Source of the DNA: an uncultured Desulfobacter sp.
GTDB taxonomy: Bacteria > Desulfobacterota > Desulfobacteria > Desulfobacterales > Desulfobacteraceae
Assembly: GCA_963665095.1 (NCBI GenBank)
Contig: OY762069.1
Span: 4,576,001-4,640,000 of the forward strand
Direction of reading: 5' to 3'
DNA: 64,000 bases
Of this stretch, positions 7,836 through 12,974 are shown in pieces. The position numbers and the translations under genes were made by a program. Each line of letters opens with the position of its first letter. Position 1 is the stretch's first letter. The notes beneath the pieces are model-generated. The model saw only the letters and a list, made by a program, of their open reading frames with translations, did no database searches and was not told the DNA's origin.

Positions 7836-8004
7836 CCATGACCCTGATGCTGGCAAGCTTTAATAATTAATTATGTATCGTGTCCCCAGAATTAATATTA
7901 TATTGTCAATTATTCGTATTTTTTTATATTTACTGATATGATATTATCATTAATAACAATAATGATTGCCTGGGAACACATTGAAAACATCCTTCAATAT
8001 AAAA

Positions 8005-8292
8005 ATGCCTGTTGAAACCAGCCGGGAACTGGCCTTAAAAACCAGGCGCCTCCGGCTTGAAAAGAGATGGACCCGGCGCACTCTGTCTAAAAGATCCGGG
8101 GTACCGGAATCAACCTTACGGCGCTTTGAGGACACAGGTAAAATTTCCCTGGAAAGCTTTTTAAAATTGATGAACGCACTGGGCCGACTCCACGAAACAA
8201 ATGATTTATTAACACCGGAACCGGCTGTCTCAATGGAGGATTTAAAAAGACAGGCCCAAAAGAATCATCTGCCCCAAAGGGGATCTGTATGA
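8005..8292 (+). CDS. HipB-like XRE-family HTH antitoxin (start uncertain, 7966-8005)
   Basis: WTRRTLSKRSGVPESTLRRFEDTGKISLESF HTH; ATGA overlap with hipA. Confidence 0.85.
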   Translation: MPVETSRELALKTRRLRLEKRWTRRTLSKRSGVPESTLRRFEDTGKISLESFLKLMNALGRLHETNDLLTPEPAVSMEDLKRQAQKNHLPQRGSV

Positions 8293-9521
8293 AATTTTTA
8301 AATGTTTTCCTCAAACTGTCTCCTTCTCAAAAGATCCTCGTGGGAACCCTGGCCGAAGACAGGCAAAAAATTCGATTCCAATATGACTCGCAGTTTTTAA
8401 AAAATCCTGTGTGGCTCTCTCCGTACAAACTGCCGCCTCAACCTGGGATGTTTGAACATAAAGACAGGGAATTCGGGCCGATTTTCGGTCTGTTTGACAA
8501 TTCTTTGCCTGACGGCTGGGGCCTGTTATTAATGGATAGGTATTTGAGGAAAAAAGGTATTGATGTCGATACCCTCACCGTACTTGACAGATTATCGTTT
8601 TTGGGGGCATCAACTATGGGCGCACTGATTTATGAGCCATCCTCCGGGGAGGATTGTTTTAACCGCCTGATCGATCTTCAGGAGATGTACAGGCACTCAG
8701 TCAAAATCATAGAAAGTGACAGTACTGACATCATCCCCGTACTCATGAAAATGGGTGGCAGCCCCCAGGGTGCAAGGCCCAAAATCCAGGTGGGAGTTAA
8801 AGATGGCAAGCTGATGACCGGTGCTGATGATTTACCGGAAGGCTATGAACACTGGCTGATCAAATTTCCATCTCCAAAGGATTTCAAGGATGCAGGGAAA
8901 GTTGAAAAAGCCTATGCATTAATGGCGGAAGACGCCGGGATCATGATGCCGACAACCCGTTTATTTGAGGTTGAATCCGGTGATTCTTTTTTCGGCATAA
9001 AGCGTTTTGACCGCAATGGCAACCAGCGGTTCCATGTTCACTCGTTGGGGGGATTAATCCACTCCAACTTCAGAATACCTGGATGCGATTACCAGATATT
9101 TTTAAGGGTCATCTCCGATCTAACCCAAAAACAGGAAGATGTGGAAAGGGGATTCCGGCAGATGGTCTTCAACATAATGGGCAATAACCGCGACGACCAT
9201 GTGAAAAATTTTTCCTTTTTAATTGATGCCGATGGAGAGTGGACCCTGTCGCCGGCCTACGACCTGATCTACTCCCCAGGTCCGGGCGGCGAACACTCCA
9301 TGAGCGTTTCAGGAGAAGGCCGGTCACCAGGATTGGACCAGGTCAAAGCACTGGGACTTGAAATTGGCCTTAAGCCCCAAAAAATTCAGGATATTATCGA
9401 TCAATCCGCCGAAGCGGTACGTTACTGGGAGAGTTATGCTGATGAGTTAAATATCTCACAGGAAAGCATGAATAGCATTCGGATAAAGATTAATGAAAAC
9501 TTAAAACGGTTTCAGCTCTGA
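8289..9521 (+). CDS. hipA: HipA-family Ser/Thr kinase toxin
   Basis: SLPDGWG, GSPQGARPK, WLIKF, KRFDR, NRDDHVKNFSF and LSPAYDL motifs are all intact. Confidence 0.93.
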   Translation: MKFLNVFLKLSPSQKILVGTLAEDRQKIRFQYDSQFLKNPVWLSPYKLPPQPGMFEHKDREFGPIFGLFDNSLPDGWGLLLMDRYLRKKGIDVDTLTVLDRLSFLGASTMGALIYEPSSGEDCFNRLIDLQEMYRHSVKIIESDSTDIIPVLMKMGGSPQGARPKIQVGVKDGKLMTGADDLPEGYEHWLIKFPSPKDFKDAGKVEKAYALMAEDAGIMMPTTRLFEVESGDSFFGIKRFDRNGNQRFHVHSLGGLIHSNFRIPGCDYQIFLRVISDLTQKQEDVERGFRQMVFNIMGNNRDDHVKNFSFLIDADGEWTLSPAYDLIYSPGPGGEHSMSVSGEGRSPGLDQVKALGLEIGLKPQKIQDIIDQSAEAVRYWESYADELNISQESMNSIRIKINENLKRFQL

Positions 9522-9541
9522 TGGATTTAACATAACAACCT

Positions 9542-9937
9542 TTAATAAAATGCCAAGTTAATCACTCTGGCCATACTTAAAAAATCCCTGTCATTGTGCA
9601 GCAGCAACAAGTCCTGTTCCATGGCGATCTGGGCGATCAGGCAGTCAATGGTACTTCTGATTGTGATACCGCTTTTTCTGCAGGCAAAATAGATCCCGGC
9701 AGCCTGGGCATAAGAAGAGACTGCATCCAGAGGCTGATAAAATCTTTGGCATCCCAGATACGTCTCCAGAAGCTCATATTCTTTCTTGTTCCTGGCTCCT
9801 TGCAGGATTTCCTGGTAAATAACGGATGTAATGCCAAACGGGATATCCCGTTCAATGATTTCTTTCAAACGATCCGCAGGCGAATTTGACATCCCTTTAA
9901 AGAAATCAACCAGGACAGAGGTGTCAACAAGTATCAT
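9542..9937 (-). CDS. vapC: VapC PIN-domain ribonuclease toxin
   Basis: ILVDTSV, QEILQG, STIDCLIA and LLHNDRDF motifs; ATGA overlap with vapB at 9934-9937. Confidence 0.92.
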   Translation of the reverse strand: MILVDTSVLVDFFKGMSNSPADRLKEIIERDIPFGITSVIYQEILQGARNKKEYELLETYLGCQRFYQPLDAVSSYAQAAGIYFACRKSGITIRSTIDCLIAQIAMEQDLLLLHNDRDFLSMARVINLAFY

Positions 9938-10134
9938 TGTCCCTGCCGACACGCCTTGTAATCATAATCATCCTGGAATTTTATTTTCCCGGAAAGCTCA
10001 AGAAGATTCCGTCTTTTCCTGGTCTGAACGAACTCCTGCAGCGCCATGGAAATTATCTCCTTTTTAGTCCTCAAGCCGCTTAAGGCCATAGCCTCCTGCA
10101 TAAGCATATCGTCAAGTATAACGTTTGTTCTCAT
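9934..10134 (-). CDS. vapB: VapB-type antitoxin
   Basis: MRTNVILDDMLMQEAM...TKKEII RHH-like N-terminus, AGGAGGT RBS, directly upstream of the PIN gene. Confidence 0.88.
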   Translation of the reverse strand: MRTNVILDDMLMQEAMALSGLRTKKEIISMALQEFVQTRKRRNLLELSGKIKFQDDYDYKACRQGQ

Positions 10135-10186: not shown

Positions 10187-10220
10187 TTCGAGAATGGGAC
10201 TTTTAGCGACCACAAACAAA

Positions 10221-10376
10221 TCATCATCAAGCCGTTGTGACTTGGACAAGGGGAGGACAATTCCAACGGTTCGGCGGGCCGCCAGGGTCGCCAGGCTATT
10301 AGGACAATCAGAAAAAATATGGGTTCCATTGGCTGGTGAGGATTCTTTCGTTGATGCGGGCTTTTCCGCAGCATAA
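10221..10376 (+). pseudogene. Relic of an XRE/HigA-like HTH antitoxin (C-terminal half)
   Basis: SSRCDLDKGRTIPTVRRAARVARLLGQSEKIWVPLAGEDSFVDAGF resembles the CDIEKGR..P...A.++AR.LG.SE..WV.LA pattern of XRE proteins; no N-terminal half or start. Confidence 0.5.
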
Positions 10377-10719
10377 CGCCCTTTTAAAACCAAAGTCACC
10401 AGCAACAGCTGGATTCCATCGGCAAAAGCGGTAAGGTTTCTCAGCCCTATTTTAAAATAAGGTTTAATTCTGACAGTGGCGGCCGCCTTTGTAGGAAGAA
10501 CGATATTATTGGCGCTTGAACCTTTATTTGAATTTGTTCGGGTTTAAAATGGATGGGTGCTACAAGAAAGGTGGGTGGTTGAATTTTCAGCATATATTGG
10601 GGATAAGGCAAAGAGGGCTTAAACTCAGTATTTTTACCCTCAAAACAGGCGGCTAAGACAATATACAGACGTGAAATAAAAACAATTATTTATAATTACA
10701 GATAGATAGCTTGGTCTGA

Positions 10720-10791
10720 CCCTACCCAGACACATTGATTCGCCTGGGAGAACAGATAATTGGGTTGGCCGAATATTTACGCTCCACCTGA
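10720..10791 (+). pseudogene. Possible decayed PEP-CTERM sorting-tail fragment
   Basis: PYPDTLIRLGEQIIGLAEYLRST* aligns without gaps to PEPGTMFLLGLGLIGFAGIGRRR of 12078-12974 and is followed by a terminator. Confidence 0.4.
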
Positions 10792-10798
10792 AAGTAAA

Positions 10799-10838
10799 AC
10801 GGGTTCTGCATACTTTCGTGTGCAGAACCCGTACTTTT
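10799..10838 (+). terminator. Strong hairpin terminator with no intact gene upstream
   Basis: ACGGGTTCTGCATAC-TTTC-GTGTGCAGAACCCGT-ACTTTT. Confidence 0.65.
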
Positions 10839-10877
10839 ATAAGGGTAAAAAAGATGTGTTTAATTATAATTACAGCA

Positions 10878-11346
10878 AACATTCTGCCGGAAGGCTGCAT
10901 TTATCCTCGGGAAGAAAGAGCTGTCCGGGATATTTTACGCCGAAGACTTTTGTTTGTGCAGCAAAGAACAACTCAAATTTTGAGTTTACAAAGCATGATA
11001 ACAAGGCAACTTGGCATAAAAATGTCAGGCAATGCGATCAAAAAATTGAAGGAACCTGAGGTTCATCAAATGTTCGATTCAAATCAGGGGTTCATGGCAG
11101 CACTTCAGATCAGGACCATCAAGGACCTGAGTAATTCCATCAAAGAGATTGAACGACAGGCGCTTTCCCAGGTGAAAATGAAAAAAGCCTTTGAAATACT
11201 TAAAACAATACCGGGTGTCGGCAATATTCTGGCACTGACTATCATGCTTGAGGTTGGCGAGATCAAACGGTTTGCCAAGGTAGGATGCTATTCTTCCTAT
11301 TGCCGTTGTGATCCCCTTTGATGAGGTAGGGCTTTTTTGCCGGTAA
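10878..11346 (+). pseudogene. IS110-family transposase pseudogene
   Basis: ILPEGCIYPREERAVRDILRRR...LKTIPGVGNILALTIMLEVGEIKRFAKVGCYSSYCRC, then a frame jump at ~11310 into the C-terminal IPFDEVGLFCR*. The DEDD RuvC domain and the catalytic-Ser segment are missing. Confidence 0.85.
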
Positions 11347-11351
11347 ATTAA

Positions 11352-11640
11352 GGCTGCAGCAGCGAACCATTTCAGGGGTTGGTATGAACCATTAGGTTTG
11401 ATTGGCAACTGCTGCAGCCACACAGTTTTTATATCCTGATTCGCCTGTGCCGTGAGCCTGTACGGGATTGGTTAACAACCATAAGATTTGAAAACAAACA
11501 ATTAGCCACGGTACGGCACTGAAGATTTTCTGGGGTCTGAACGGACCAGGGGCCGTGTACCACGCATTTTGCCTGGTACACATCTGGCTTGAACCTGATG
11601 GGTGACTGGTGCGGATCATTTCCGTGAACCACACGACGAA
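11352..11640 (+). ncRNA. Candidate IS110/IS1111 bridge (seek) RNA with three related stem-loop modules
   Basis: Three GA(A/G)CC-N9-10-(T/C)TGGT-loop-ACCA modules at 11364, 11454 and 11591; closing stems GGCTGCAGCAG/CTGCTGCAGCC and GTGCCGT/ACGGCAC; module 3 contains ATGGGTGAC, identical to the element end at 11765-11773. Confidence 0.6.
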
Positions 11641-11767
11641 ATAACAGGCGCGGACAGGGAAAAAAGCTGTTGGTTTAAAACCAATTTACAAAATAGTGTG
11701 TGGGTCAAGAAAAAAAGGAGATTTTTTCTTAGGGGAGGTGTTTTTTCTCTTGACCCGGCCTTTAATG

Positions 11768-11780
11768 GGTGACCCCATGA
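11768..11780 (+). repeat. Right copy of 13-bp direct repeat GGTGACCCCATGA, at the IS110 right junction
   Basis: Identical to 7823-7835. Confidence 0.75.
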
Positions 11781-12077: not shown

Positions 12078-12974
12078 ATGATTATGAAATTCTTAAAATT
12101 GTTATTAGTATTAGCGTTTTTATTATTTTCAACAAGTTCAGCTTATGCCGAAAGCTTCGGTGTCAATTTAGACAATGATGCCGATTTGGAAATCTGGACA
12201 AATGGGGATGACAAGTTAATGGAGGGAGGAACCGGTGCCGTTATTTTAACCTCTTCTGATACTTTTTATGAAGTGGCTGTTGGAACTATTAGTGCTTTTT
12301 TGGATAATAATGTTTTTCCTAACAATCAGAGTTCCGATGCATATGCTAACAATGTACTTACGTATGTTCTTGAAGGAACAGGAAACGTAGACATAACGGC
12401 TAGTGAGCATTCTTTTGATTTTACCGATGCAACCATTTCTTTTTATCTTACCCCCACCAGCACCGCCACAGATTCCTACCTCTTGGCAGAGTCGTTAGCT
12501 ACTGGCGACGCAATTGCTACCTTCAGCCTGACGAGCGGTTCCGGGACGCTTCAAACAACACCGGGAGAGACCGATGGCCTTGATATCTTTGCCTTGGACA
12601 ATGCAGATATAGACAATGATGTTTTTTTCTTCATCAATTCAGATGGTACTCTGTCAGATTGGGCTGATCTGAATATCGTCACTAGTCTTTTTATAGAAAT
12701 CTGGATCGATACAAAAAATATGCTTATCACTAATGAAGACGATCAAGATTCATTAGATGAGACTCAAGCTGTTTTTACGGAGTTGTTCACAGCTGTTGCT
12801 ACCGGAGCCCTTGACGGTGCGACTCCCGATTCTACTGTAGACGACAACATGTTTATCGTACGTACTCAAGGTGGAGGAGTGAGTGCCTCAATAGTCCCTG
12901 AGCCGGGAACAATGTTCCTCCTCGGTTTGGGTCTTATCGGTTTTGCGGGCATAGGAAGAAGAAGGGTTAACTAA
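12078..12974 (+). CDS. PEP-CTERM sorting-domain surface protein
   Basis: Signal peptide (SSAYA), acidic Asp/Thr/Ser-rich body and a VPEPGTMFLLGLGLIGFAGIGRRRVN tail. Confidence 0.95.
   Translation: MIMKFLKLLLVLAFLLFSTSSAYAESFGVNLDNDADLEIWTNGDDKLMEGGTGAVILTSSDTFYEVAVGTISAFLDNNVFPNNQSSDAYANNVLTYVLEGTGNVDITASEHSFDFTDATISFYLTPTSTATDSYLLAESLATGDAIATFSLTSGSGTLQTTPGETDGLDIFALDNADIDNDVFFFINSDGTLSDWADLNIVTSLFIEIWIDTKNMLITNEDDQDSLDETQAVFTELFTAVATGALDGATPDSTVDDNMFIVRTQGGGVSASIVPEPGTMFLLGLGLIGFAGIGRRRVN

Follow-up and report, generated by a model that had tools for sequence, protein, structure and literature searches.

The window analysed here, a stretch of 64,000 nucleotides from the genome of an uncultured Desulfobacter sp., contains what is left of an insertion sequence (IS) and, downstream of its recombinase gene, a non-coding region with several guide-like modules (Table 1). 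The same genome (G000) holds two identical intact copies of this IS, a 1,622-bp IS1111-type element that encodes a recombinase of the IS110 family (338 amino acids), and sequence comparison aligned the window copy with them from position 10877 onward. One intact copy is located on the minus strand at G000 C1 3789455-3791078. The window copy is 5'-truncated and internally deleted: its left end and RuvC domain are gone, and a 230-nt deletion at 11309/11310 removed codons about 251-326, including the conserved Ser257, leaving an open reading frame at 10818-11321. The intact recombinase matched PF01548 and PF02371 in a profile search and scored 178 bits against NF033542 (cut-off 140). Residues D8, E55, D92/93 and D96 were each present in 51/51 of the proteins compared, and S257, presumably the catalytic serine, was present in 49/51. 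The DEDD RuvC domain and the Tnp domain with its conserved Ser are found in the intact copy and are absent from the window remnant, whose transposase a first-pass annotation, made from the sequence alone, had described as dead. Judged by its sequence, the window copy is a decaying, non-autonomous remnant.

Table 1. Features of the IS remnant and its guide-encoding region, in window coordinates.
Feature	Position	Strand	Description
Recombinase gene remnant	10877..11346	+	IS110 family; codons 1-106 (RuvC DEDD residues) gone
Module 1	11352..11419	+	Putative stand-alone target-binding loop; 11-bp stem, box C/D-like CCA/UGG helices; short-seekRNA size
Module 1 5' guide	11370..11379	+	GGGGT (11375-11379) complementary to right target ACCCC, top strand
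Module 1 3' guide	11392..11402	+	Left target AGGTT, core TG and handshake AT (= first two donor bases)
Domain 2	11435..11658	+	One multiloop closed by 11435-11445/11647-11658; contains module 2 and the donor loop
Module 2	11445..11516	+	Target-type loop, the second of two; guides at 11459-11468 (5') and 11482-11490 (3', with core TG at its end)
Segment X	11521..11530	+	Predicted right-donor guide for the left end of the element, to which it is complementary; alternative pairing of its 3' part with 11638-11641
Two hairpins	11534..11589	+	Replace the donor loop's simple central hairpin (multi-loop donor loop)
Module 3	11596..11606	+	Predicted left-donor guide ATGGG, core TG and handshake AC (= first two right-target bases)
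Conserved segment containing GAAA	11638..11645	+	Candidate fold-back (pseudoknot) partner of the right-donor guide
Right end	11750..11771	+	-35-like TTGACC (11750-11755), sub-terminal inverted repeat (about 11755-11767), GG, core TG (11770-11771)
Right target flank ACCCC	11772..11776	+	Host DNA, outside the element

Directly upstream (7966-10134) lie genes for a HipA-type kinase and its HTH partner, followed in the list by a convergently oriented toxin-antitoxin pair of VapBC (PIN) type, and a 129-bp stretch at 10219-10348 is 74% like positions 6190218-6190346 of the host genome. At 10719-10735, about 150 nt upstream of the remnant, is an empty site that resembles the targets of L053 and similar relatives, and a gene for a PEP-CTERM protein follows the element (12078-12974).

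The boundaries of the element were supported by the flanks of the intact copy L002, which restored a 196-codon frame once joined, and by a contig of run X6 that skips exactly 1,622 bases. Because TG is the core common to distant relatives, we read the target as AAGGTT-TG-ACCCC, with TG as core, and predict a circle junction of TAATGGG-TG-ATAATCAT. A core of TGA or GA, which we assumed at first, was dropped, as distant elements have only TG in common. The imperfect sub-terminal inverted repeat of about 13 bp lies around TAAAGGCC with 9 nt outside it in total (6+3), and the non-coding DNA measures about 425 nt 3' of tnp vs about 185 nt 5' of it; sub-terminal inverted repeats with 7(6)+3-nt extensions and a long non-coding region downstream of tnp are the characters by which IS1111 elements are recognized. 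The IS1111-clade motif GL-P----S(t)G reads RCV----SNG in this recombinase, and the nearest named cluster is ISGsu4.

The -35-like box that had been noted near the element end was confirmed. In the predicted junction promoter, TTGACC-15-GATAAT, the spacer is short at 15 bp (17 in several distant relatives), and a promoter scan gave 7 vs 3.7 +/- 2.2 by chance, which is near chance. No circle joint was found among the assembled contigs of four runs, and a 390-nt contig of a relative that spans the region in an RNA library (run X19) had a depth of 4.5, at which it cannot show transcription. The window copy, having no left end, also has no junction promoter, and a terminator-like hairpin (15 bp, 10799-10832) lies just upstream of it. 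Its module 1 guides and donor guides do not differ from the intact ones. Module 2 and one stem of the donor loop are weakened by base changes at 11467 and 11587, the first of which, in the module 2 core, is missing from both intact copies.

The first-pass annotation had described three related modules in the non-coding region (at 11364, 11454 and 11591, with stems at 11352-11362/11409-11419 and 11447-11453/11513-11519) and a 9-nt sequence, ATGGGTGAC, that occurs both in the third module (11598) and at the element end (11765), and all of these motifs were found in place. The region folded better than 100/100 shuffled sequences (z -3.37), and module 1 folded by itself reached z -4.72; modules 2 and 3, each folded by itself, gave a non-significant z of -1.4, and their support comes from covariation. 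Rfam returned no match at any gathering score (two chance matches had E values of 0.57 and 2.9). Two scans yielded 159 loci of 58-77% identity, mostly from MAGs of Desulfobacterota; with the three copies from the host genome counted in, 112 had complete right ends. Phylum-wide searches added few copies, and viral contigs contained no recombinase match and two pattern matches that failed to parse. Among the complete ends, 86 had the layout module 1, module 2, segment X, module 3 (M1-M2-X-M3), 10 carried a duplicated first module (M1-M1-M2-X-M3), 3 lacked everything before module 3, and 13 gave other or noisy parses. Two target-type loops are thus present in 86/112 ends and three in at least 10, which departs from the rule of one target loop and one donor loop. 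The same layout was found in plasmid-borne relatives of 46-53% identity from Burkholderiales, Pseudomonas and Pseudoalteromonas, some of which (46% identity) carry the annotation 'ISGsu4 family'.

An alignment of 31 sequences folded as two domains, namely module 1 alone and the multiloop at 11435-11658. In this alignment, to which the structure was itself fitted, two-sided changes occurred in 30/54 proposed pairs and 96.7% of cells paired; in helix 4, which supports domain 2, 5/8 pairs changed on both sides. Each guide is bracketed by CCA/UGG boxes resembling those reported for TIGR and IS110 RNAs (PMC12045711). The layout counts and the covarying pairs show that the three modules are real and conserved, and they support the earlier proposal of an IS1111-type bridge/seek RNA that has more loops than the usual two. 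The variable 9-10 nt 'cores' that had been assigned to the modules were correctly located, but each covers just the 5' half of its guide loop; the principal target guide is the 3' strand of module 1.

Comparison with the insertion-site flanks showed module 1 to be the putative loop through which the insertion site is read. In 88 elements from 56 clusters (which are not independent samples), its 3' guide agreed with the left flank at 5.60/7 letters, vs 4.19 after shuffling (z 9.4), and among the 15 phylogenetically independent pairs at the most variable position, 9.6 agreed vs 0.5 (median p 0.008). This paired test, performed on a Desulfobacterota-rich set with a 51-protein tree, was significant at 1/4 positions, the other three having too few pairs. 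The 5' guide agreed with the right flank in 24/43 at the one variable position (p 0.0005), and in distant elements it was complementary to the right flank at 29/42 vs 17.9 (7 lineages).

The donor was shown, from matches to both sides of the circle junction, to be read by a predicted branched loop that consists of segment X (11521-11530) and module 3, with a right-donor guide that is imperfect and partly paired internally. An A variant co-occurred in module 3 and the right end in 6 clusters and was discordant in 1, and two rarer variants co-occurred once each; among independent pairs agreement was 3.9 vs 0 of 4, too few for significance. In segment X, G stood opposite a left-end C in 4/4 vs 3/67, and A opposite a left-end T in 3/11 vs 0/60, in clusters that are not independent. 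The core-proximal part of X can also pair with a conserved segment near the 3' end (p 0.001-0.002, 13 lineages), and this fold-back measures 4 bp in this element and 6-7 bp in eight distant relatives. The first-pass reading of module 3 as the donor-binding loop was therefore correct in that this module covaries with, and reads, the element's own right end, but it captured only the left-donor half and missed X. A separate loop formed by module 3 and the downstream ACCA was replaced by the pairing of module 3 with X, whose helices are conserved without two-sided change. The guides of modules 1 and 3 covary with the flank and the right end.

The two bases that follow the core in module 1 equalled the donor bases +1,+2 in 10/10 parsed elements (AT, AG, AA), with three module 1s falling outside the parsing; L197, read by eye, is an exception in that its module 1 handshake mismatches its donor. 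In module 3, the two post-core bases equalled the right-target bases +1,+2 in 12/13 elements (AC, TC, CC). These comparisons showed that the predicted handshake dinucleotides of both modules agree with the DNA that would be their partner once strands are exchanged, following the rule established for IS621, in which handshake pairing is reported to suppress excision (PMC13626964) and the handshake arrangement to favour insertion. Because the module 3 handshake consists of right-target bases, the 9-nt match that had been noted between this module and the element 'terminus' reaches two bases into host DNA: the letters are identical, but the element ends at 11771 and the last two are target DNA. 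In module 2, the post-core bases agreed with the donor in 0/13 and with the target in 0/13 scorable elements, and they read AT in 1/63 clusters.

Module 2 has the same helix topology as module 1, with an inner pair that is C-G in 21 and U-A in 10 of the 31 aligned sequences, and it was weakly matched by the module-1 covariance model. It lacks handshake bases and has about 12-13 extra nt ahead of its closing pair, the distance from core to closing box being 10-14 nt in 48/63 clusters. Across distant lineages, both its 3' guide (35/55 vs 18.8, p 5e-5, 11 lineages) and its 5' guide (31/54 vs 23.6, p 0.0065, 9 lineages) tracked the target; three elements that were close duplicates or had no flank were left out. 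After phylogenetic pairing in the Desulfobacterota-rich set, the tracking was not significant (2.4 vs 0 of 7, 1.1 vs 0 of 6, 0.3 vs 0.3 of 3, and 0 vs 0.1 of 15). Its topology, guide tracking and post-core bases showed module 2 to be a structurally distinct, putative target loop that shares its site with module 1, is free of a handshake and is tied to the donor loop. By eye, its variable 3' extension resembles a copy of the left junction.

Judged by the flanks, module 2 is not the main target selector. The flank followed module 1 at 44 of the 58 positions where the two modules were discordant; the other 14 were split evenly between module 2 and neither module (7 each). The module 2 of this element has A against G in all four known left flanks (its own and those of the closest relative), and in L190/L200 the module 2 5' guide mismatches the target. 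The first-pass annotation had taken modules 1 and 2 to be two further loops that may specify more than one target. Both are indeed target loops, but they aim at the same site. The flank comparison did not support separate sites for the two modules, and we dropped that reading; guides for different sites were seen only in relatives with a duplicated module 1.

Two strong module-1 matches, usually with different guides, were present in 14 loci from 7 clusters among 93 chosen sources. A second module 1 found in L036 by a regular expression had no covariance-model support and was dropped. We compared 15 double-module-1 elements of known flank with their sites (L036 excluded, wobble allowed), and 14/15 fitted one copy without mismatch, while one fitted none. 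The 14 fits involved only the first copy in 7 cases (four of these being copies of one element), only the second in 2, and either a copy or module 2 in 4; the remaining element fitted its first copy, module 2 not being seen there. A single element using two module-1 copies at mutually exclusive sites was not found in five genomes. The element in G003 has sites that exactly match each of its module-1 copies, but this case is not decisive, since wobble lets the first copy read both sites. In L052, L054, L064 and L143, an extra degenerate module-1-like hairpin (17-28 bits), the strands of which mismatch the target, lies right after the stop codon.

This RNA resembles the seekRNAs described for the IS1111 elements ISEc11, ISKpn4, ISPa11 and ISPst6 (Siddiquee et al. 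2024, PMC11187229) in its location in a non-coding region downstream of tnp, in the sub-terminal inverted repeats with 6+3-nt extensions and 338-amino-acid recombinase of its element, and in the order of its guides, the top-strand guide lying 5' of the bottom-strand guide; module 1 (68 nt) is also near the peak seekRNA (82-96 nt) in size and position. It differs from them in that their long RNAs measure 148-172 nt, according to a review table, against about 305 nt of structured RNA here, and in that one target loop is described there (PMC11187229), whereas a second loop and sometimes a duplicated first one are found here. With the bridge RNA of IS621/ISCro4 (Durrant 2024, PMC11208160; Hiraizumi 2024, PMC11208158; Hiraizumi 2026, PMC13626964) it shares four guides around a 2-nt core and handshake dinucleotides that would pair after strand exchange. 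Unlike that RNA as described, it has TG as core, lies at the right end, reverses the guide order, and has three loops rather than two, the extra target loop being handshake-free; the IS621 protein is itself distant from this recombinase (E 4e-7). The CCA and UG(G) boxes around each guide and the several guide units in tandem recall TIGR-Tas arrays and, for the boxes, box C/D RNAs (PMC12045711). The protein here, however, is a recombinase rather than a Tas nuclease (it scored 21.7 against NCBIfam TIGR, where the cut-off is 100), and two or three target units take the place of a regular repeat-spacer array.

Multi-loop donor loops have been reported for many IS1111 orthologues (Durrant 2024, PMC11208160), and Supplementary Table 1 of that paper lists the ISGsu4 cluster. 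In this cluster (ISGsu4, ISGsu5, ISShfr7 and ISShwo5 in ISfinder), the relatives annotated 'ISGsu4 family' have the M1-M2-X-M3 layout, an assignment made via annotations rather than ISfinder entries. The literature searched contained no description of an ISGsu4-cluster RNA, the one paper naming ISGsu4 being concerned with cytochromes. IS110 RNAs have been described as a single two-stem unit (PMC12045711), the accounts consulted give one target and one donor loop, and in one preprint several donor loops are predicted for a single locus. In article text, as distinct from figures and bioRxiv supplements, we found no description of two target loops; Fig. S12 of 10.64898/2026.10.21.760802 may show such an arrangement. 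The class of mechanism is already known, and what appears to be new, as far as sequence comparison can tell, is an IS1111-type clade with a near-universal, structurally specialised, handshake-free second target loop.

Taken as a whole, the region is probably the source of a guide RNA, with three loops that read DNA, for an RNA-guided recombinase of IS1111 type. By analogy with IS621 and ISEc11, the joined ends of the circle would form the promoter, the transcript would be processed or used as separate loops, and one recombinase dimer would be bound per loop; the target and donor loops of one IS621 complex are reported to come from different RNA molecules. As in IS621, module 1 and the donor loop would drive insertion. 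The handshake-free module 2 may allow the recombinase to hold the target halves that flank an inserted copy without a lock, leading to excision or copy-out. We propose this division of roles, with module 1 driving insertion and module 2 permitting excision, only tentatively. Somewhat more doubtful is its extension to a whole IS1111-like clade, which would set the direction of recombination by splitting the work between two target loops: insertion would fall to a free, handshake-bearing loop, expandable to a small array of different guides, and excision or copy-out to a loop that lacks a handshake and is joined to a self-masking donor loop. Against the excision role, the donor-loop handshake would still lock the right junction, and since excision in IS621 can proceed with donor loops only, it does not require a second target loop.

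Module 2 might instead be a back-up insertion guide, slower-changing, consensus-like and with a wider site range, which comes closest to the multi-target idea of the first-pass annotation but seems rather unlikely to us. Its two target guides, the helix topology that it shares with module 1, and the minority of discordant positions (7/58) at which the flank follows it all fit such a guide, as do L190/L200, where its 3' guide beats module 1 on the left target at one position, and the duplicated module 1s, which show that several guides are tolerated and used. The flank nevertheless followed module 1 at 44/58 of those positions, the handshake by which insertion is promoted in IS621 is absent from module 2, and no element's flank fits module 2 alone on both sides, with the arguable exceptions of L031 and L047. 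We also think it unlikely that module 2 serves as a decoy or brake that binds recombinase dimers and the flanking target halves non-productively and so limits transposition: two target-loop dimers cannot recombine in IS621, and the extra 12-13 nt of module 2 distort its 3' strand, but a brake has no obvious need to sit in one domain with the donor loop and to be kept there from Desulfobacterota to Burkholderiales.

It is similarly improbable that module 2 is an ancestral target loop that now serves as a scaffold for folding the donor domain, its guides being target-like through ancestry or conversion from module 1. The weak tracking of module 2 in the close clade is consistent with this reading, and so is its U at the most variable target position, which is fixed in 55/56 clusters. 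A fixed U, however, reads either base by wobble, distant lineages with wholly different targets have rewritten both guides, and the stems of modules 1 and 2 have stayed unlike each other. A use of module 2 in direct, circle-free transfer, with one target loop on the old site and module 1 on the new one, is very unlikely in our judgement. Both loops carry the same target, as this reaction would require, and a target-loop-only RNA of CazIS110-1 is reported to cooperate with a bridge RNA (bioRxiv 10.1101/2025.10.25.684509), but that evidence comes from a preprint on a different clade, and a single loop sequence would do.

The clade bears on two questions: how IS110-family elements excise although the handshake favours insertion, and which RNA does the work, a short seekRNA with the target part only or a full bridge RNA. 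Here a single RNA carries a target loop that stands alone as well as a complete target-plus-donor domain, and because the two target loops differ exactly at the handshake, simple loop deletions would test both questions. Since module 1 occurs in natural duplicates whose guides differ, one transcript may serve several targets, a point of relevance to editing with bridge recombinases.

The first-pass annotation had further suggested that the RNA could be used in trans, which is plausible for the family and unsupported for the window copy. Three near-identical copies in one MAG (L008-L010) have a common deletion of modules 1, 2 and X and occupy three sites (two with the same 82-nt left flank), and the RNA guides of L028, from the same MAG, fit these sites. 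This suggests that the guide RNA of L008-L010 may be supplied in trans, as shown for ISEc11. The window copy offers no such support: it lacks a left end, has the terminator-like hairpin upstream and no new guides in module 1 or the donor loop, and its module 2 and a donor stem are weakened.

Several further remnants and variants were observed. In the host genome, the related remnant L003 (G000 C1 3402022-3402490) has module 3 DNA that runs directly into the CCCC target flank, and looks as if guide-coding DNA had served as the right end or as if a deletion had occurred between the two 9-nt repeats. L004 (G000 C1 6303841-6303871) is a lone 31-bp right end with target flank and no element upstream, and a short right-end remnant resembling it was seen at the L001 site in run X6 (joint 975-2581). 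The last ~16 bp of the right end are tandemly duplicated in L006, L039, L042, L045, L187 and L203, either through left-donor-only recombination or as an assembly artefact. A second, distant IS110-family recombinase frame (L005, G000 C1 1830500-1831530) has 31% identity to the remnant. In many left flanks, such as those of L008, L011, L034 and L085, the target is one arm of a REP-like palindrome (GGGTCAA ... TTGACCCC).
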